Assembly: GCA_903835075.1 (NCBI GenBank)
Contig: CAILLM010000002.1
Coordinates: 16,920 to 80,919 of the forward strand
Direction: 5' to 3'
From: Candidatus Staskawiczbacteria bacterium
Lineage (GTDB): Bacteria; Patescibacteriota; Minisyncoccia; Minisyncoccales; Staskawiczbacteraceae
Length of the DNA: 64,000 nt
The notes beneath the pieces are model-generated. The model was not told the origin of the DNA and did no database searches. It saw nothing but the letters and a program-made list of their open reading frames with translations. The translations under genes were made by a program, and so were the position numbers. Shown here piece by piece: positions 2,087-48,079 of the stretch (position 1 is the stretch's first letter; every line of letters starts with the position of its first letter).

Positions 2087-2890
2087 ATGAAAAAAATTTA
2101 TTTATTGGTTATAGTATTGTTAGTTTTGTTAGCAACACTCACGATAAATTTATATTTTTTAAGTAAAAAAGTTATTGCGCCCATTGTCCCAGTTACAAGT
2201 TGTATACAGGCGGGAGAAATTTATCAAAGCCCTGCTGTTTCGGGAGTTAAGAAAGGAAAATGTTGTAGTGGACTAACCGTGATCGAGCAAGCCACAAACC
2301 CAGATTGTGAACAAGCCAAACTTGCCGGAGGACAGGACTCTATATGTTCTGCGTGCGGCAACGGAAGGTGTGAACAATGGGAAAACAAATGTAATTGTCC
2401 TCAAGATTGTAACAATAATTGTGCAAAAGAGGGAGAAGGTGTTGGGGGAAGCGCAGTAGGAAGCAAGCAAAATTGTTGCCAGGGTTTGAAAGCAATGTCT
2501 GGGTTTGAATATAACGGTGGGTGTTCTGACATAAGGGTGCCTGGAAGCGCTGTTATTTGTAGTAGTAAGTGCGGAAATGGGATTTGTGAATCTTGGGAAA
2601 ATGGATGCAACTGTCCCTCAGATTGCCAAAAAATAGGAAATGGCTTACGAATTCCAAAAAATAATGCCGAGTTACAGTCATGTGTTCATGATTTTGACTG
2701 TTTAGTAGTTGAGGCTAAAACATGTTGTGGATGTTTTGAAGTGATAAATGGTATATATGATACATATTGGAATTCTTTGCAGTCTGAAAAGTGCGTCGTA
2801 AGCACTGCTTGCCCCGTATGTAAATATAACCTTGGTAATTCTAAGGGTGTTTGTATAAATAATGTTTGCCAAGTTAAGTCTAAGTGGTAA
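2087..2890 (+). CDS. Secreted cysteine-rich repeat protein
   Basis: N-terminal signal/TM segment. Two internal modules end in CGNGRCEQWENKCNCPQDC and CGNGICESWENGCNCPSDC, followed by a further Cys-rich C-terminal module. Confidence 0.65.
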   Translation: MKKIYLLVIVLLVLLATLTINLYFLSKKVIAPIVPVTSCIQAGEIYQSPAVSGVKKGKCCSGLTVIEQATNPDCEQAKLAGGQDSICSACGNGRCEQWENKCNCPQDCNNNCAKEGEGVGGSAVGSKQNCCQGLKAMSGFEYNGGCSDIRVPGSAVICSSKCGNGICESWENGCNCPSDCQKIGNGLRIPKNNAELQSCVHDFDCLVVEAKTCCGCFEVINGIYDTYWNSLQSEKCVVSTACPVCKYNLGNSKGVCINNVCQVKSKW

Positions 2891-2901
2891 TCAAAAATTA
2901 T

Positions 2902-3402
2902 ATGGCAGAATATAATCCAAAAAATGAAGATAACAAATGTATTTTTTGCGAAATAGTAGCTGGCAATATTAAAACGCCCGGTGTATTTTGGGAAGATGAA
3001 GAATTTATGGCATTTTTATCAATTGACCCAAATACAAAAGGTTTTTCTTGTGTAATTCCCAAAAAACATTTTAGCAGTGATGTTTTGAAAATGCCTGACA
3101 ACGAATTGCAAAAATTTATTGTTGCCGCTAAAAAGGTTGGCGGAATATTAGAAAATTATTTTGATGACGTGGGACGAGTTGGCCTAATAGTAGAGGGTAT
3201 GGGAATAGATCATGCTCATATAAAGCTTGTTCCTATGCATGGCACAGAGGCTTTTAAAAATAGTGGATGGAAGCAAATTCTTAGTGGAAAACAATTTTGG
3301 TTTGATAAATATGAAGGGTGGATTTCTTCTGGTAGCGGGGCTACGGCTGACCCAGAAGAGCTAAGAAAATTGGCTGAAGACATCAAGCAGAAGGCAGGTT
3401 GA
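2902..3402 (+). CDS. HIT (histidine triad) family protein
   Basis: CIFCEI N-terminal motif and a DHAHIKLVP histidine-triad-like motif. ATG at 2902 preferred over the GTG at 2884 used in the ORF track. Confidence 0.7.
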   Translation: MAEYNPKNEDNKCIFCEIVAGNIKTPGVFWEDEEFMAFLSIDPNTKGFSCVIPKKHFSSDVLKMPDNELQKFIVAAKKVGGILENYFDDVGRVGLIVEGMGIDHAHIKLVPMHGTEAFKNSGWKQILSGKQFWFDKYEGWISSGSGATADPEELRKLAEDIKQKAG

Positions 3403-3457
3403 TTTTTATGTGATTCGTGGTAGTATAAAATCGAAATAGATTCGAGTTATTTTAAAT

Positions 3458-5245
3458 ATGGACTCTCAAATAGAAGAAATAAAAAGTAAGCTTAATGTAT
3501 TGGATATTGTTGGAGGCTATGTTAAGCTTTCAAAAACTGGAATTAACTATCGTGGAATTTGTCCATTTCATTCTGAAAAAGGGCCATCTTTTTTTGTAAG
3601 CCCAGGTAGGCAAATGTGGAAATGTTTTGGTTGTGGAAAAGGTGGAGATATTTTTGAATTTATAAAAGAAATTGAAGGAGTGGAGTTTGGAGATGCCCTA
3701 AGGCTTTTGGCCAATAAAGCAGGAGTTGAATTAAAAAGGGAAAATCCCCAAATAACTAGTGAAAGAAAAAGATTATATGAAATTTGTGATTTGGCAAGTT
3801 CTTTTTTTGAAAAACAATTAGGAAGTTCGGCATATGGCAAAGATGCAAAAGAATATTTATTGAAAAGAGGGATTACCGAAGAAAGTATAAAAAAATGGAG
3901 GCTTGGTTATTCGCCAGACACTTGGCAGGGATTGTCAGATTTTTTAGTGGGCAGGGGATACAACAGGGAGGAAATTGTAAGGGCGGGGCTTGCTGTGCCG
4001 TCTGATAAGGGGAATAACCCATATGATAGATTCCGTGGTAGAATCATTTTCCCAATTTTTGATTTGAATTCTCAGGTTGTTGGTTTTACTGCTAGAATTT
4101 TTAAAGATGCTGATAAAAAAGAAACTGCTAAATATATTAATACTCCCCAAACAATGCTTTATGATAAGAGCAACGTTCTATACGGACTTAATTTCGCAAA
4201 ACTTTCTATTAGAAAGAATAACCAATGCGTATTGACAGAGGGCAATACAGACGCCATAATGTGCCAACAAGCTGGTTTTGAGGACACAGTGGCAGTATCG
4301 GGTACAGCATTAACTGAAAGGCATTTAAACATTTTGAGAAGATATACCGATAATTTAATTTTAGCTTTTGATATGGACTCTGCTGGAGATGCAGCGACAA
4401 AAAAGGGGATTGACTTAGCGATATTGCAAGGTTTTAATATCAAGGTAATACATAGTTATATCGGCGCAAAAGATCCAGCTGAAATAATTTTAGAAAATCC
4501 TAAAATTTGGATTGAATCACTGAAGACTGTTGTAGAGATAATGGATTTTTCTTTTAATTCTGCGCTATCTAAATTTGATAAAAATACTCCACAGGGAAGA
4601 AAAGAGATAAAATTCATACTTTATCCAAGGATAGCTATAATTCCAAATACTATTGAGCAGGCAAAACAATTTCAAAAACTAGCTCAAATATTCAATGTAA
4701 AAGAAGAGGACGTAAGAGCTGATTTTAATGAGTGGAAAAAGAATAATCAAAACAAGGGACAAATAACGACTAGGGTTAGCGTAGAAAAAGTTATACCAAT
4801 TAGCAAAAATAACCCTACAGCAGAGGGGAGAAAAAAACTTTTAGAAGATAAAGTTGTCTCACTAGTTTTAAAAAATCCCGAAAATTTAAATTTAATTGAA
4901 AAATCTCATCACTATCTATTTACAGAAAAAACAAGAAGCTTAATTGAGAATATTAAGGACAGTGCACAAAAAAGAGGTAATGATGCAGAGGCTATTTTTG
5001 TAGATATTAAGAAAGATGAATATAAAGATTTATTAGATGTAATGGCCTTAAAAGCAGAAATAGACTATGAAGATGATGGCGAAGATGAGATTAACCTTTG
5101 CCTTTCTCAGTTAAAAGATATAGAATTGAGAAACAAGTTGACTGAAATTTCAGGGGCAGTAAAATCGGAAGATGACGAAGAAAAGAGAGATGCGCTAATT
5201 AAAGAGTTTACAAAAAACGCTAAAGAATTACATCAAAAAATATAA
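3458..5245 (+). CDS. dnaG: DNA primase
   Basis: 595 aa. Zinc finger [13 protein letters not shown]...[11 protein letters not shown] and a TOPRIM region ([20 protein letters not shown]). Confidence 0.95.
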
Positions 5246-5255
5246 AAAATATTTT

Positions 5256-6461
5256 ATGGCAAAGCAAAAAACAAAAAAGATTAAAAAGGTTCAGAAGCTG
5301 AAAAAGGTCTTAAAGCCCAAAAAAATAATAAAGGCTAAAAAATCAACTGGTAAGCCACACAAAATAGAAAGAGTTTCTAAAAAAAATGTGATTGACCAGG
5401 TGCAACTTGATGCGCTTTTAAAAAAGGGTGAAGAAAGGGGTTTTGTTACAACCTCGGAGATTTTGTATGCTTTTCCTAAAATAGAACATGATATTGAAGG
5501 TTTAGAAAAAGTTTATGATGATTTCAAAGAAAGGGGAGTTCAGGTTAAAGAAATGCAGGAGTTTTTAGAAGTAAAACCAAAAAAAGGAGCAAAAGGAGCA
5601 AAAGCTAAAAAACCCTTGATTGGAAAAATTGATCCAATCCAAATGTATTTGAAAGAAATTGGAAAGTCGAGCTTTTTGTCGGCACGTGAAGAAAAAGAAT
5701 TAGCAAAAAGAATTGAGGCTGGTGATGAAGATGCAAAAAATAGGTTAGCCTTGGCAAATTTAAGATTAGTTGTTTCTATTGCCAAGAAATATGTGGGAAG
5801 GTCGCCAAACTTAACAATGCTAGACTTAATTCAAGAAGGAAATTTAGGTCTTTTTAAGGCAGTTAAAAAGTTTGATTGGAGGCGAGGATACAAATTTTCA
5901 ACTTATGCAACTTGGTGGATTAGACAATCTATTACTAGAGCCTTGGCTGACCAGGCCAGAACAATTAGAATTCCCGTGCACATGATTGAAACAATTTCTA
6001 AATACACAAAGGTAAGAAAAAATTTATTGCAGGAATTAGGCAGGGAGCCATTGGCCGAAGAAATTGCTGCTGAAATGGATTTAGATGTGGAAAAAGTACA
6101 TCACATAAGAAAGATTGCGCAAAAAGCAGTATCTTTGGAGACCCCTGTTGGAGAAGACAAAGACAAACAAGATAGTGTTTTGGCTGAGTTTATAAGGGAT
6201 GATAAAACAATTGCGCCAAACACAGAAGCTTCTAGGAAACTTTTGAAAGAAAGATTAAAAGAAATTTCTAGCGAGTTGACTCCAAGGGAATTGAAAATTT
6301 TAGGGATGAGATTTGGTTTAGATGATGGTGTAATGCATACTTTAGAAGAAACAGGGGAAGAGTTTGGCGTTACCAGAGAAAGAATCCGTCAAATTCAGGC
6401 AAAAGCTTTAGAGAAGTTGCGCAAACATAAAGAGCTCAAAAAAGTTAAAGATTATTACTAA
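5256..6461 (+). CDS. rpoD: RNA polymerase sigma-70 factor
   Basis: Region 2 [13 protein letters not shown], region 3 and region 4 ([19 protein letters not shown]). Lys-rich N-terminal extension. Confidence 0.95.
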
Positions 6462-31775: not shown

Positions 31776-32522
31776 ATGGAGATATCATTAAAAGCTGAAG
31801 ACATATTCAGTATAGGAAATTTTAATATTACAAATGGGTTGTTGCTGGCTGCAGTGGTGTCTTTAATTTTAATAATTTTTGCAGTTATTTTTAGAAGCAA
31901 AATTAAAATGGTTCCTGGAAAAGTGCAAGCAGTTGTAGAAATGGGATTAGAGGGACTTTTAGGATTAATGGAATCAGTACTAGGTACAAGAGCTGCAGCA
32001 GAAAAATATTTGCCGTTAATAGCGACAATTTTTATTTTTGTGTTAACATCTAATTGGCTGGGGTTATTGCCTGGAGTTGGGTCATTTCATATAAAAGTAG
32101 GCGAGGATGTGGTGCCTTTATTTCGTTCGCCAGCAGCAGATTTAAATTTTACTTTAGCTTTGGCGATAATAGCAGTTTTTACAACTAATTTTTTTGGGAT
32201 TGTTGTTTTGGGAACATTTACACATATTAAAAAGTTTATAAACTTTTCTAGCCCAATTAATTTTTTTGTTGGAATATTGGAATTTTTATCAGAAATATCT
32301 AGAGTAATATCGTTTTCTTTTAGGTTATTTGGAAATATTTTCGCTGGAGAAGTTTTATTAACAATAATATTTTTCCTATTACCATATATAGTGCCTATTC
32401 CTTTTATGTTTATGGAGATATTTTTTGGAGCAATTCAGGCTTTAATTTTTGCAATGCTAACATTGGTATTTTTATCTGCCAGCATTGCTTCACATGGAGA
32501 GGAACACGCCACAGAGCATTAA
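31776..32522 (+). CDS. atpB: F0F1 ATP synthase subunit a
   Basis: LSFRLFGNIFAGE motif. Operon context. Confidence 0.92.
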   Translation: MEISLKAEDIFSIGNFNITNGLLLAAVVSLILIIFAVIFRSKIKMVPGKVQAVVEMGLEGLLGLMESVLGTRAAAEKYLPLIATIFIFVLTSNWLGLLPGVGSFHIKVGEDVVPLFRSPAADLNFTLALAIIAVFTTNFFGIVVLGTFTHIKKFINFSSPINFFVGILEFLSEISRVISFSFRLFGNIFAGEVLLTIIFFLLPYIVPIPFMFMEIFFGAIQALIFAMLTLVFLSASIASHGEEHATEH

Positions 32523-32589: not shown

Positions 32590-32871
<282 letters not shown>

Positions 32872-32895: not shown

Positions 32896-33402
32896 ATGAA
32901 TGCATTTATAGAGCAATTTGGAATAGACTGGAAACTTTTTTTGAGCCAACTGGTTAACTTTGTGTTAATTTTGATTGTCTTGAAGTTTTTTGTTTACAAC
33001 CCAGTGTTAAAAACGCTTAAGGAAAGAAACAAAAAAATTAAAGAAGGTTTAGATAAAGCAGAAGAAGCAGGTGTAAGACTAAAAGAAGTTGATGCAATTG
33101 GAAAAGCAAAAATTAAAGAGGCAGAAACAGCTTCTATCAAAATAATAAAAGCCACCGAGGATAAGGCAAAACTTTTAGATCAGGAATTGCAAAAAAAGTC
33201 TGAAGAAAAGCAAATTAAATTGCAAAAAGAATTGCAAGATAATTACAAAAAACAGCAGGAGCAAGCAAATGATTTAGTAATGAAAAATGCAGTAGAACTG
33301 GTCAAAAAAACAATTGTGAAGACAGTTGAATTAAAGCCAGAAGCAATTGACGAGGCATTAATTAAAAAAGCAGTAGCAGGAGTAAAAGATGAAGCAGAAT
33401 AA
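32896..33402 (+). CDS. atpF: F0F1 ATP synthase subunit b
   Basis: N-terminal TM segment followed by a long charged coiled coil. Operon position. Confidence 0.85.
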   Translation: MNAFIEQFGIDWKLFLSQLVNFVLILIVLKFFVYNPVLKTLKERNKKIKEGLDKAEEAGVRLKEVDAIGKAKIKEAETASIKIIKATEDKAKLLDQELQKKSEEKQIKLQKELQDNYKKQQEQANDLVMKNAVELVKKTIVKTVELKPEAIDEALIKKAVAGVKDEAE

Positions 33403-33778
33403 AACAAAATTATATGCCAGGGCGTTAGCAGAAATTCTTTCTAAAAAGGGAGGAGTTTCGGCTACGGAAGAAAAGAGAGTGGTAAGTAATTTTGTTAAAC
33501 TTATAATTGCCGCTGGATTAGAAAAAAAATTAAAAGAAATTTTGAGTTTGGCGGAAGATTTTATTTTGGCAAATCAAGGAAAAAGAAGAATAACTTTTGA
33601 AACAGCCAGAACAACAACCGCCAGCCAGAAAAAAATATTAGATGGTATTGTAAATAAAGGAGACATTGTAAAAGAAAAAATTAGCCCAGAATTAATAGCG
33701 GGCATAAAAATAATAATTAACGATTCAAAGCAATTAGATTTGTCATTATTAGCAAAATTGCAAGAGGTATTTACATAA
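33389..33778 (+). CDS. atpH: F0F1 ATP synthase subunit delta (short, 129 aa)
   Basis: Operon position. OSCP-like C-terminus LIAGIKIIINDSKQLDLSL. Confidence 0.7.
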   Translation: MKQNKTKLYARALAEILSKKGGVSATEEKRVVSNFVKLIIAAGLEKKLKEILSLAEDFILANQGKRRITFETARTTTASQKKILDGIVNKGDIVKEKISPELIAGIKIIINDSKQLDLSLLAKLQEVFT

Positions 33779-33781
33779 AGG

Positions 33782-33866
33782 CGATACCAATCTACGAATA
33801 AACATACCAATAATACGAATATAAAAATTAGTATAATTAGTATGAGATTAGTATATTAGTATCGCG
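33782..33866. repeat. ~90-bp AT-rich repeat, copy 1 (upstream of atpA)
   Basis: gcgataccaatctacgaataaacataccaataatacgaata...attagtatcgc. A second copy lies at 35941-36031. Confidence 0.85.
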
Positions 33867-33877
33867 TTAAGGAACTT

Positions 33878-35404
33878 ATGAGCCAAGAAACTTTAGAAAA
33901 AATTAAGCAAGCCATTGAAGGTTACAAAGAAAGCACCGAGTGGGAAGAAATTGGAAAGGTGTCGGAAGTTGGTGATGGTATTGCCAAGGTAACTGGTTTA
34001 ACAAATGCACAATCACAAGAGGTGCTTGTCATAGAAGCCGGTGACCAAAAAATTAAGGCAGTTGCTTTGAACCTAGAAGAAGACTCTGTGGGGGTTTTAA
34101 TTTTGGGTGATGGATCTTTAATAAAATCTGGTCAAACAGTTAAAAGAACTAAACAAATTCTTTCAATGCCAGTTGGGGAAAGTTTGCTAGGAAGAGTTAT
34201 TGACCCATTGGGAAACCCCATAGATGGCAAAGGACCAATATTCTCTGAGAAGGACAAACCTGTTTTAAGCTTTTTGGAAAATGATGCGCCAAACGTTATT
34301 GGCAGAGAAAAAGTTAGTACTCCAATGCACACAGGAATTAAAGCAATTGACTCAATGATTCCAATTGGACGTGGTCAAAGAGAATTAATTATTGGAGACA
34401 GGGGAACCGGAAAAACTGCTGTTGCTTTGGACGTTATAATTAACCAAATTCAAGACAACCCCGAAAATCCACCAATTTGTATTTATGTTGCCATTGGACA
34501 AAAAGAATCTAAGGTTGCCAAAATTGTTGAAACACTAAAACAACACGGAGCAATGCCTTATACAGTTGTTGTTTCAGCAAGTGCCTCTAGCCCTGCAGCA
34601 TTTTGGTATTTGGCACCGTTTGCAGGTTGCGCAATTGGAGAATATTTTCGCGATAATAAAAAAGATGCACTTATTGTTTATGATGATTTGTCTAAGCACG
34701 CATGGTCTTACAGACAAATTTCTTTACTTTTAAGGAGACCACCAGGACGTGAAGCCTATCCTGGAGACGTATTTTATTTACACTCAAGATTATTAGAAAG
34801 AGCAGCCAGACTTTCAAAAGAAAAAGGAGGTGGGAGTTTAACTGCTTTGCCAATTATTGAAACTCAACTTGGCGATGTTACAGCTTACATTCCAACAAAC
34901 GTTATTTCAATTACTGACGGACAAATTTATTTGGAATCAGATTTGTTTTATCAGGGTACAAGACCAGCTGTTAACATTGGTTTGTCGGTTTCCCGCGTTG
35001 GAGGAGATGCTCAAACAAAAGCAATGAAAAAAGTTGCCGGAAAGTTAAGGCTTGAGTTGGCTCAATTTAGAGAATTGCAAACTTTCGTTCAATTTGCCAG
35101 TGACGTTGATGAAGCCACAAAAAAGAGAATTAACAAAGGAAAGATTGTTACCGAAATTTTAAAGCAAAGTGACTTGGCTCCAATGGCTTTTGAAAAACAA
35201 GTTTTGGTTTTGTACGCCGCTTTAAATGATTATTTTGAAAAGTTTGAGCCAAAACAAATGAAAGAAATTGAGGTAAAATATATTGAATATTTTGAAAATT
35301 TACACAAAGACATTGTTGACGAAATAAGAACAGAAAAGAAAATTAGCGACGAGTTAGAAGAAAAGATAAAGCAAGCTATTGGCAAGTTCGTTGAAGCAAA
35401 TTAA
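33878..35404 (+). CDS. atpA: F0F1 ATP synthase subunit alpha
   Basis: GDRGTGKT Walker A. 508 aa. Confidence 0.96.
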
Positions 35405-35458
35405 AAATTTGCAAAAAAAATCCCTGTAGTAGTACAGGGCATGCGAGCAGTCATCTGT

Positions 35459-35656
35459 TCAACTGTCAATTTTGTAAGCCACTATTATGGTTGAAAAACC
35501 AGCTAACATGGAAGCAAGGCTCGCCACGACTGGTGTCCAAAAACCAATTTCTGGCCAAAACTTAATTGGTGGATGAATTATAACTGCGAAGATCAGCAAT
35601 AGAACGCCGGAAAGCCATAATAGCACAACGCCCAAATCGATTGTCCAGTGTCTCAT
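35459..35656 (-). CDS. Small two-TM membrane protein (65 aa)
   Basis: Antisense to the atp operon. ATGA overlap with the upstream 65-aa ORF. Higher G+C. Confidence 0.5.
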   Translation of the reverse strand: MRHWTIDLGVVLLWLSGVLLLIFAVIIHPPIKFWPEIGFWTPVVASLASMLAGFSTIIVAYKIDS

Positions 35657-35850
35657 GACTTTGTCCTTCTAGTAATTTCTAATGCCCAAAGGAAGGAATA
35701 TCCCAAAGAAAATCCGACTGAGTCTATTACCATTGATTCAGTGTTGAATGGCATTTTGAATAACAGTCGAATTATTACCAGGATTAAGAAGCCCAAAATA
35801 GCTAGTGGCAGGGTTAAATTTAACAGCCACCATTTCAAAAAAGTTTTCAT
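35653..35850 (-). CDS. Small two-TM membrane protein (65 aa)
   Basis: First gene of the antisense pair, with its own promoter at 35901-35929. Confidence 0.5.
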   Translation of the reverse strand: MKTFLKWWLLNLTLPLAILGFLILVIIRLLFKMPFNTESMVIDSVGFSLGYSFLWALEITRRTKS

Positions 35851-35900
35851 AGCGTTTCAGGAGGTTTGATTAACAAGGAGCTACGAGCTCTCGTATAAAA

Positions 35901-35929
35901 ATATTATAACTATTATAAAAAATTGTCAA
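35901..35929 (-). promoter_or_regulatory. Sigma-70 promoter for the antisense small-protein pair
   Basis: On the - strand: TTGACA, 17 nt spacer, TAATAT. Confidence 0.6.
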
Positions 35930-35940
35930 GAATAATAACA

Positions 35941-36031
35941 GCGATACCAATCTACGAATATACATACCAATTATACGAATACGGAAATTATTAGTATCAT
36001 TGGTATGCGATTAGTATATAATTAGTATCGC
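35941..36031. repeat. ~90-bp AT-rich repeat, copy 2 (upstream of atpG)
   Basis: Aligns with 33782-33866 over its full length, with a few substitutions and small indels. Confidence 0.85.
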
Positions 36032-36045
36032 TTTCAGCGAAGCAC

Positions 36046-37020
36046 ATGGAATCACCACAGAACATAAAGAAAAGACTGAGGTCAGTCAATAATATAAACA
36101 AAATTACTAAGGCCATGGAAATGGTTGCGGCTACTAAAATGCGTAAATCGCAGGAAATAGCCCTAGCCAGCAGGCCTTATGCTTTTGCGGCACTTGATTT
36201 TTTGGCAACAGTTTCCAACTTAGATTCGGCAAAATTGCCAGAATTGTTTCACGATAGGACAAAAAATCCTTCGACAAGCTCAGGACCGCGGGTTTTATTT
36301 GTTTTGGTGTCTTCTGACAAGGGCTTGGCGGGAGCATTTAACAGTTCGGTTTTTAGAAAATTCGCCGCCCATTTTGAAAAATGGGCGAGCCTCGCCCCAA
36401 AGGGGCGGGAGGAGCAATTGTTTGTCGCGATTGGTGAAAAAGCAAATCAGTATTTATCAAAAAAGGGTTACAACGTTGTAAAAAAATTTACAGCAGTTGG
36501 CGACCATACCACAGTAGAGCAAGTTAAGCCAATCGCTGATTTTATTGTTGAAGGTTTTTTGGCGGAAAGCTGGGACAGGGTAGTTGTTGTTTCAACACAT
36601 TTTAGAAGTGCATTAAAACAAGAACCGCACGTACGCACAATCTTGCCTATTGATTTTGATCATATTGCAGAAACAATAAAAGAAATTATTCCCGAGCGCG
36701 GAAAATTTGCTGATTTGATAAAAGAACAAAACATAAGTTTTATACCAAGCAAAACCGATTCAAGGGATTATTTAATAGAACCGTCGGCAGAAGAAGTTTT
36801 AAATAATTTGGCAAAGCATTTATTTTTTATGCAAATGTACCATATAATTTTAGAAGCAAACGCATCCGAACATTCCGCCCGCAGAATGGCCATGAAAACA
36901 GCTTCTGACAACGCAAAAGATTTAGGAGACAGATTAAATTTACAATATAATAAATCAAGACAGTCGAGAATAACTACAGAAATTAGTGAAATCTCGGCGG
37001 GTGCTGAGGCATTAAGTTAA
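36046..37020 (+). CDS. atpG: F0F1 ATP synthase subunit gamma
   Basis: ITKAMEMVAATKMRK N-terminus and ITTEISEISAGAEAL C-terminus. In-frame GC-rich elements at 36267-36291 and 36384-36410. Confidence 0.93.
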   Translation: MESPQNIKKRLRSVNNINKITKAMEMVAATKMRKSQEIALASRPYAFAALDFLATVSNLDSAKLPELFHDRTKNPSTSSGPRVLFVLVSSDKGLAGAFNSSVFRKFAAHFEKWASLAPKGREEQLFVAIGEKANQYLSKKGYNVVKKFTAVGDHTTVEQVKPIADFIVEGFLAESWDRVVVVSTHFRSALKQEPHVRTILPIDFDHIAETIKEIIPERGKFADLIKEQNISFIPSKTDSRDYLIEPSAEEVLNNLAKHLFFMQMYHIILEANASEHSARRMAMKTASDNAKDLGDRLNLQYNKSRQSRITTEISEISAGAEALS

Positions 37021-37031
37021 AAAGTAAATAA

Positions 37032-38410
<1,379 letters not shown>

Positions 38411-38411
<1 letters not shown>

Positions 38412-38653
38412 TGAAATTATCAATTTACTCATTAAAAAATATTTTATTTCAGGGCGAGGCCTCGCTTTTAAATTGCCAAACAATGGCTGGGGAAATTACT
38501 GTTTTAGATAGACACGAGGCCTTAATTAGCGTTTTAACAGCTGGCATAATTAGAATTGTTGATAAAGACAAGAAGGAACAATTTTTTCCCATAACATCGG
38601 GATTTTTGGAAGTTAAACCCGATAGCGATGTGAGGTGTATTGTTGAACAATAG
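38411..38653 (+). CDS. atpC: F0F1 ATP synthase subunit epsilon (80 aa, beta-sandwich domain only)
   Basis: Operon position with ATGA-type coupling to atpD. No C-terminal helical hairpin. Confidence 0.8.
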
Positions 38654-48031: not shown

Positions 48032-48079
48032 AAACAAACTAAAAAGGCATAGAATTTTCCATGCCTTTTTAGTTTGTTT
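48032..48079. terminator. Long perfect hairpin at the end of the RT gene
   Basis: aaacaaactaaaaaggcat / atgcctttttagtttgttt: a 19-bp perfect stem overlapping the RT stop codon. Confidence 0.7.

Follow-up and report, generated by a model that had tools for sequence, protein, structure and literature searches.

The window studied here (the whole stretch of 64,000 nucleotides that was analysed) comes from Candidatus Staskawiczbacteria, in the Patescibacteria, and contains the F1Fo ATP synthase operon of this organism, in the order atpBEFHAGDC. This operon carries three secondary insertions: two copies of a structured repeat (hereafter the element), at 33781-33865 and 35941-36031, and an antisense unit of small open reading frames (ORFs) at 35413-35929 on the minus strand. 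We show that the two copies are members of a dispersed family of quasi-palindromes of 77-107 nt in Patescibacteria, and we discuss what such an element might do in front of a start codon. The features of the locus are as follows (TM, transmembrane).

31776-32522, plus strand: atpB, from the ORF list
32644-32871, plus strand: atpE, from the ORF list
32896-33402, plus strand: atpF, from the ORF list
33389-33778, plus strand: atpH (stop codon TAA at 33776-33778), Pfam OSCP
33781-33865, plus strand: element copy 1 (85 nt), in the atpH-atpA spacer
33878-35404, plus strand: atpA (F1 alpha subunit), from Pfam
35413-35439, minus strand: intrinsic terminator that ends the antisense unit, a stem-loop (35439..35422) and then T8, read as A8 at 35413-35420 on the plus strand
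35656..35459, minus strand: ORF B, 65 aa, two-TM, loop motif LLLIFAVxIxPPIxxWPExG
35850..35653, minus strand: ORF A, 65 aa, hydrophobic, coding status uncertain
35929..35901, minus strand: sigma-70-like promoter of the antisense unit, TTGACA-17-TAATAT, 10 of 12 matches
35941-36031, plus strand: element copy 2 (91 nt), between the antisense promoter and atpG
36046-37020, plus strand: atpG (ATG at 36046), from Pfam
37041-38411, plus strand: atpD, from the ORF list
38411-38653, plus strand: atpC, from the ORF list

The two copies in the atp operon

The two repeat copies of about 90 bp that the original prediction placed in this operon are indeed there. The 20-mer GCGATACCAATCTACGAATA occurs exactly twice in the 64 kb, at 33781 and 35941, both times on the plus strand (none is expected by chance, as judged from 100 shuffles), and the two copies are about 83-86% identical. 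Copy 1 starts 2 nt past the atpH stop codon and ends 12 nt before the ATG of atpA; it is built from a GCGATAC clamp, four units ATAC[C/G]AAT, four units ATTAGTAT and a closing GTATCGC. Copy 2 ends 14 nt before the ATG of atpG. Both are quasi-palindromes over their whole length, with RNA folding z-scores of -4.3 and -4.4 on the plus strand and of -7.5 and -6.1 on the minus strand, and they differ from each other at 1 of 64 unit positions, as against about 8 of 21 positions outside the units.

The atpH-atpA junction is overlapping or a few nt long in all eight relatives compared (8/8), which identifies copy 1 as an insertion; on this comparison of sequences, it replaces the overlapping stop-start coupling of atpH and atpA found in the relatives. 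As for copy 2, its nearest kin is an element upstream of rpsG in locus L167, with which it has the loop and a GCGAAGC tail in common, and the two window copies are no nearer to each other than to copies from other organisms. GCGAAGC, a heptamer known to form a mini-hairpin of unusual stability in DNA, lies at 36037-36043 (plus strand), between copy 2 and the ATG of atpG. It is also found 4-7 nt downstream of the element in about 10 unrelated contexts (for instance L099, L100, L141, L145, L167 and L182), 1-4 nt before the start codon. We had considered that the GAAGCA before atpG could be a duplicated 3' end of atpA, and rejected this idea because GCGAAGC follows the element in these unrelated contexts.

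The upstream atp gene order of the window is identical in the relatives L001-L007. AtpA of the window is 88% and 85% identical to its counterparts in two Candidatus Staskawiczbacteria metagenome-assembled genomes (MAGs), and 74-80% identical to those of further Staskawiczbacteria or Patescibacteria MAGs. Contigs from the same population match the window at 99.7-100% identity and show no polymorphism in either the element or the antisense cassette. Two public contigs of this population, L082 and L084, start 6 nt inside copy 1, and one contig of this pair turns into unrelated sequence past codon 4 of atpG (L084:2270-3287); the palindromic repeat has probably led to assembly breaks or chimeras here. 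A scan of the window against Rfam at the gathering threshold returned only tRNAs, and no other long palindrome of the window resembles the element. At 48032-48079, close to the end of a gene, there is an inverted repeat of 23 nt (96% complementary, 2-nt loop), which is probably a bidirectional terminator and has no relation to the element.

A dispersed family in Patescibacteria

The search for further copies that the original prediction had proposed gave nothing beyond the two copies in the 64-kb window, even with a profile of the family, but in metagenomes it uncovered a whole family. Scanning with a pattern of fixed 11-nt ends, GCGATACCAAT N55-85 ATTAGTATCGC, we obtained 97 contigs, out of many sediment and groundwater metagenomes, with 72 distinct elements of 77-107 nt. 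All have the same architecture: a GCG clamp, four ATAC-N-AAT units, a variable loop, four ATT-N-GTAT units and a CGC clamp, the ends GCGATAC/GTATCGC being perfect terminal inverted repeats. Several of the fetched loci contain extra copies, at about one per 65 kb, and the family profile has no match in 619 kb of atp loci from outside the Patescibacteria. A divergent copy fills the atpE-atpF spacer of L007 (Staskawiczbacteria RIFCSPHIGHO2_01_FULL_39_25), at 3035-3109; its units are ATGC-N-AAT / ATT-N-GCAT and it has no GCG clamp. It was missed by the exact-pattern scan, and indicates that lineage-specific variants of the units exist. Viral contigs searched with two patterns gave no element, Rfam at E<=1 found nothing at the element positions of five element-bearing loci, and our literature search returned only primers or unrelated papers; the family is apparently undescribed.

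The most striking property of the family is its position. In about 80 of 83 unique contexts, a start codon lies 1-17 nt from one end of the element, so that the suggestion of the original prediction that the repeat may act as a leader finds support at the level of the family. The orientation is forward (ATG after ...ATTAGTATCGC) in about 66 contexts and reversed in about 17, and where a gene is called after a forward element the distance is at most 13 nt in 59 of 63 cases. Roughly 60% of the elements lie between cistrons, their first G following the stop codon of the upstream gene by 0-4 nt, and roughly 40% are in 5' untranslated regions (UTRs), where they adjoin the ATG even when 40-1489 nt of non-coding DNA lie upstream. 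Convergent spacers, which make up 10% of the junctions, contain at most 2 of the 83 elements (p = 0.01). There is no sign of target-site duplication: direct repeats of 2, 3, 4 and 5 nt flank the element in 4, 1, 0 and 0 of 75 contexts, the flanks extending the palindrome instead (A at -3, T at +3).

The genes that follow are mostly housekeeping genes. Those recognized by Pfam encode RpoA, the ribosomal proteins L10, L27, L29, L22, L18, L24, S2 and S7, EF-Tu and GroEL; SSB, RNase Y, RNase H, a class II aminoacyl-tRNA synthetase and YebC; and a PilB-like ATPase, a response regulator, ferredoxin and cysteine desulfurase. N-terminal sequences add L2, L3, L11, L36, GroES, MetRS, GAPDH and PilC. Orthologous sites retain the element across 64-85% protein identity, and the same genes recur in lineages in which these proteins are 15-36% apart. 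At such sites the element is 82-95% identical, compared with 65-77% for the first 300 nt of the gene (a figure inflated for the element by the 22 terminal bases fixed in the retrieval). Both orientations occur at the orthologous SSB and response regulator genes. We infer that members of the family stay, for the most part, where they are at orthologous genes, and that now and then one is copied to a new start site.

A possible hairpin leader and its rivals

What could be the function of an element so closely associated with start codons? Promoter prediction gives a first indication. A sigma-70-like promoter is predicted upstream of the element in 11 of 20 5'-UTR contexts, against 4 of 27 intercistronic ones, and in four of the eleven the predicted -10 box ends 7-8 nt before the first G of the element, in which case the mRNA would begin exactly with the hairpin (in the others the distance is 18-101 nt). 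Within the element itself, a sigma-70-like site of at least 9/12 matches is found in 6 of 47 cases only, and our promoter scan detected none on the plus strand of the window copies. From such predictions, the element looks like a transcribed leader or an intercistronic structure, and not like a promoter. The leaders of two MetRS genes (L089:663-752 and L096:1406-1493, each with the 60 nt upstream) combine a TATAAT promoter, a terminator-like hairpin with a U-run, the element, and an ATG 3 nt further on; the terminator-like hairpin is a possible attenuator.

The pairing of the stem is informative as well. With the units folded on each other, pairs 2-7 and 4-5 show a G.A or U.C mismatch at the unit centre in 42 and 47, respectively, of 59 clean elements. 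Watson-Crick intermediates one step away (G-C, U-A) number just 10 and 6, while pair 3-6 is C-G in most cases. All 500 column shuffles contain more standard pairs than the alignment itself, so that pairing is avoided at these unit centres. In L007 all eight units have changed, which amounts to compensatory changes in four helices, with the mismatches at pairs 1, 2 and 4 and the C-G at pair 3 kept. Insertions respect the fold as well: a GC-rich side hairpin on one arm (predicted to form a three-way junction in L142), and extra unit pairs added at the apex with the register of the stem kept. L095 has the compensatory CCACC/GGTGG instead of CCGCC/GGCGG, and local compensatory changes are also present in L090, L089 and L128. 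The counts of G.U versus A.C pairs (10 versus 8) show no bias that would reveal a preference for one RNA strand. Taken together, the kept mismatches, the L007 variant and the fold-respecting insertions point to a folded single strand, whose fold would be under selection.

Finally, the organism appears to initiate translation largely without Shine-Dalgarno (SD) pairing, judging from the window: among its 57 genes of at least 120 aa, only four have an SD-like 4-mer at -17..-4, and the upstream regions are A/T-rich. If so, the choice of start sites must rest on a start region that is open and AU-rich. When 56 contexts are folded by partition function, the unpaired probability at positions -4..+12 is 0.548 with the native element, 0.498 with the element shuffled (p = 1e-4 versus native) and 0.527 with the element deleted (not significant versus native). 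The self-contained fold of the native element thus spares the start codon from an insert of 80 nt.

We think that the element is a transcribed, clamped hairpin leader, which would serve as a protective or processing structure of the downstream cistron, and we give this interpretation a probability of about one half. The element would be co-transcribed in the mRNA (here, the polycistronic atp transcript), and its RNA would fold into a self-contained, GC-clamped, AU-rich and mismatch-studded hairpin, the start codon staying single-stranded. Such a hairpin could block 5'-to-3' exonucleolytic decay after upstream cleavage, or define processed ends, and it could insulate the start region in a genome nearly devoid of SD sequences; the kept mismatches may limit the stability of the stem or avoid the cleavage of long perfect duplexes. 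In this way atpA, and atpGDC after an untranslated stretch of 640 nt, would be expressed independently of their upstream context.

Several observations weigh against this proposal and have to be acknowledged. Among the atp operons of close relatives the element is present in the window and L007 only, that is to say sporadically, and relatives with cassettes express atpG without any element. Positive covariation is weak, the paired unit positions being nearly invariant, and the conservation figures are inflated by a retrieval that demanded 22 fixed terminal bases. The units are much more conserved than the spacers, beyond the needs of a plain hairpin, and some copies (L087, L133, L159 and L171) have extra unpaired units beside them; both facts make a sequence-specific partner, either protein or RNA, likely. 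The commoner orientation is the one that gives the weaker hairpin on the sense strand (-27 versus -31.5 kcal/mol). Last, in our folding model the fold by itself opens the start region no further than deletion of the element does, and it may only make the insertion harmless.

A rival idea is that the element is a selfish, MITE-like (miniature inverted-repeat transposable element) or REP-like mobile palindrome without host function, tolerated only in the untranslated bases between stop and start codons of a compact genome. It would account for the variable presence of the element at the atp junctions of close relatives, for a single subtype (loop plus GCGAAGC tail) in front of genes as unrelated as atpG here and rpsG in L167, for the two orientations at the orthologous SSB and response regulator genes, and for a fold that merely holds the openness of start sites at the element-free level. 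We nevertheless consider it unlikely, in view of the lack of target-site duplications, of copies only about 83% identical within this genome (hence no burst), and of the low copy number in the fetched loci. Moreover, the element is still pressed to the ATG in long 5' UTRs, is depleted in convergent spacers, where selfish repeats usually accumulate, and is kept in front of the same genes by streamlined genomes whose proteins are 64-85% identical.

Another explanation would have the element act as duplex DNA, as an array of eight ATAC-N-AAT operator sites (four direct and four inverted, spaced by ~9-10 bp) bound by a global regulator or a nucleoid protein with a small regulon of growth genes. 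The conservation of the units relative to spacers and loop (1/64 versus about 8/21 changes between the window copies), the concerted alteration of all eight units in the L007 lineage, the unpaired extra units flanking the copies in L087, L133, L159 and L171, the indifference to orientation and a regulon-like copy number of about one per 65 kb would all suit an operator. However, duplex DNA offers no reason to prefer a mismatch between a G-site and a T-site over identical sites, the asymmetric side hairpins add 14 bp to one arm only and so break the spacing of the sites while keeping the folded stem, the GC clamps lie outside the units, and many copies are located in tight operons far from promoters. 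On balance we find this explanation improbable.

A bolder form of the leader hypothesis, to which we would also attach only a low probability, makes the element a phylum-specific portable expression module for bacteria without SD sequences. The hairpin would join the stop and start codons at the base of its stem, allowing terminating ribosomes to re-initiate across an insert of 80-100 nt (a bacterial "shunt"), and would shield the 5' end of the downstream cistron, with periodic mismatches that escape RNase III. If this were true, the element would be a new kind of cis-acting RNA, with some 15-25 core genes under its control in each Patescibacteria genome.

The original prediction proposed that the repeat may be an internal promoter, which would then drive atpA and atpGDC. 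The gene-proximal unit ATTAGTAT does contain a -10-like TAGTAT or TATATT, transcription starting there would produce very short leaders, as suits a genome without SD sequences, and the forward orientation prevails (about 80%). We think that this is very unlikely, given the rarity of sigma-70-like sites within the element (the 6 of 47 mentioned above, with none reported in the window copies), the canonical promoters located upstream of 5'-UTR copies, and the reversed elements (about 20%), which place TGGTAT, lacking the A at -11, next to the gene, even where other lineages have the forward form.

Hardly credible is the notion of a single composite mobile unit made of the two copies with the DNA that they enclose, or of the element as a recombination site for cassette integration: two copies of the same orientation do lie 2.16 kb apart, one of them abutting the cassette, but they enclose the essential atpA, each alone obeys the general start-codon rule, they are no closer to each other than to the copies of other organisms (copy 2 being closer to the rpsG element of L167 than to copy 1), and the cassettes carried at this junction by L001, L003, L004, L005 and L184 come without the element. 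The bracketing of the cassette by the repeats, as originally described, does not hold either, the copies flanking atpA as well as the cassette; we see in it a coincidence between independent members of an old dispersed family.

How does the element compare with known systems? The REP/BIME, ERIC, Correia (NEMIS), RUP and Rickettsia palindromic elements are likewise short, non-coding hairpin repeats, intergenic and co-transcribed, some of which alter mRNA stability or carry expression signals, and like them the element differs in presence or absence between relatives. In contrast with these repeats, it shows no target-site duplication, occurs at about one copy per 65 kb as old, diverged copies, lies 1-17 nt 5' of start codons instead of at 3' ends or in convergent spacers, and has a periodic build of eight units with selected mismatches, retained at housekeeping genes across genera. 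The RAYT-associated REP/BIME palindromes measure 20-40 nt, have a GTAG head and lie mostly at the 3' ends of genes, whereas the element is 77-107 nt long without such a head. With MITEs it has terminal inverted repeats in common, but neither target-site duplications nor many near-identical copies (two in 64 kb).

There are functional parallels too. The mRNA-stabilising leaders of E. coli ompA and of B. subtilis ermC and aprE, and the intercistronic RNase III sites of phage T7, are also hairpins at or near the 5' end of cistrons, in 5' UTRs or within polycistronic mRNAs of highly expressed genes, which leave the start codon free; these are gene-specific, whereas the element is one portable, conserved family found at many genes in both orientations. 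The structured mRNA repeat between atpH and atpA of E. coli, a translational coupling switch, also stands just before the atpA start, and CIRCE, which lies as an inverted repeat between the promoter and the groESL start and works at the level of DNA as well as mRNA, likewise precedes groES/EL. The element has no sequence relationship to either, and its fold leaves the start region unsequestered; moreover, unlike the E. coli structure, it is missing from the atpH-atpA junction of close relatives, where stop and start codons overlap.

The atpA-atpG junction and wider significance

The antisense unit is a self-contained piece of 540 bp, made of a promoter, ORF A, ORF B and a unidirectional terminator. 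The original prediction was right to give the antisense pair its own promoter (TTGACA-17-TAATAT at 35929..35901) and to describe two 65-aa ORFs that overlap (they do so by ATGA); it assigned two TM segments to both, and hydropathy shows two clear segments in ORF B, but one strong and one weaker segment in ORF A, the peaks of the two ORFs being 2.7-2.9. The hairpin at 35422-35439, which it called terminator-like, is real but serves the other strand and not atpA: there is no U-run on the plus (atp) strand, so that it should not stop atp transcription, and the T-run on the minus strand makes it the terminator of the antisense unit. We infer that the atp transcript must read through the antisense unit.

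ORF B has one clear homologue among 1.84 billion representative sequences, P0002 (64 aa, E 2e-8, 47% identity), and the gene for this protein has the same location and strand in L184, antisense in the atpA-atpG spacer and directly next to atpG; the AtpA of L184 is 78% identical to that of the window. At 17 of the 60 aligned codons the two genes differ by synonymous changes only, which marks ORF B as a real gene under constraint at the protein level. The case of ORF A is less clear: no homologue was found by a word-based search, it is not called by gene finders in the contigs L081-L086, and it is absent from L184. A coding test based on codon usage was ambiguous for ORF A, ORF B and the plus-strand ORF, with an intermediate score for ORF A. 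The cassette proteins have no significant match in Pfam, PHROGs or NCBIfam.

The original prediction called such an insert unusual, and the eight relatives compared bear this out. The atpA-atpG spacing is 3-15 nt in the compact operons of L002 and L007, whereas L001, L003, L004 and L005 each have a different antisense small-ORF unit at this junction, with its own minus-strand terminator and a TTGACA box 3-12 nt from the ATG of atpG. No homology was detected among the cassette proteins of the window and of these four relatives, and none of these cassettes is accompanied by the element. The TGTCAA promoter core at the atpG-proximal edge is invariant in every unit of the relatives, and 32 nt around the antisense promoter are homologous between the window and L001. 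The spacer of L184 reaches 1280 nt and contains, in order, an antisense two-TM ORF, a truncated copy of the atpG 5' end and a zinc-ribbon gene, and further an antisense tRNA-Leu(taa) (5461-5533), a duplicated atpA 3' end and the ORF B homologue. In L003 and L006, sense-strand genes for NYN-domain proteins occupy the junction, flanked by a duplicated atpG 5' end.

As relatives have either nothing or unrelated cassettes there, the atpA-atpG junction is, on these comparisons, a hotspot for insertions within an essential operon, and lineages exchange what it contains. The duplicated ends of the flanking genes (3' of atpA, 5' of atpG) in L184, L003 and L006 suggest that the exchange probably takes place by recombination through the conserved atpA and atpG flanks. 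The antisense insert is an acquisition separate from the element copies.

Could the products of ORF A and ORF B be type I toxin-like membrane peptides, with an mRNA silenced by the complementary atp read-through transcript, or else accessory subunits of the ATP synthase? They are 65-aa proteins with TM segments, as expected of small hydrophobic membrane peptides; from the gene layout, their transcription would be obligately convergent with that of the atp operon; four of six cassettes in relatives encode unrelated small two-TM proteins; ORF B is kept at the exact position in a genome with a 78%-identical AtpA; and a PemK toxin pair is present elsewhere in the atp operon of L184. Against this, neither ORF matches any toxin, holin, defence or AtpI/AtpZ family (for the latter there is no Pfam or NCBIfam match, and the ORFs are antisense between atpA and atpG), and the gene is absent from closer relatives. 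We regard both ideas as doubtful.

This junction resembles the variable gene islets exchanged through flank homology, where unrelated small genes likewise occupy one junction and fragments of the flanking genes are duplicated, and type I toxin-antitoxin loci, in which small hydrophobic ORFs likewise overlap an antisense transcript. It differs from both in that the hotspot lies inside an essential operon, the small-ORF units are all antisense and minimally packaged from promoter to terminator, and no known toxin family is involved.

Other small genes have entered these operons or settled beside them. In L184 a PemK-toxin gene and a gene for an 86-aa protein lie between atpG and atpD (operon at 2501-6205). 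The NYN-domain genes are located at gene starts within the atp operons of relatives (L003:1464-1949, L003:4598-5137 and L006:5658-6218), each flanked by the duplicated 5' end of the downstream gene (atpG, MESPQN.., or atpH, MSSKNKAKLYA..), a pattern suggesting that a mobile gene is at work which targets the start regions or copies them. In the window, a gene for an 84-aa GIY-YIG nuclease (Pfam PF01541; 31513-31767, plus strand) lies between a LUD-domain gene and atpB; it is absent from the same junction in L001, and is another small insertion beside the operon.

The Patescibacteria (Candidate Phyla Radiation, CPR) represent a large share of bacterial diversity, and most of them cannot be grown; to our knowledge, almost nothing is known of the control of gene expression in this group. 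A structured element in front of genes for ribosomal proteins, EF-Tu, chaperonins, RNA polymerase and ATP synthase offers a handle on mRNA processing, mRNA stability and translation start in CPR, and is a candidate for a new RNA family. Its selected mismatches (a kind of "anti-covariation") imply that standard covariation screens can miss such elements. As for the atpA-atpG junction, it indicates that an essential operon can host an exchangeable islet of antisense genes for small membrane proteins.

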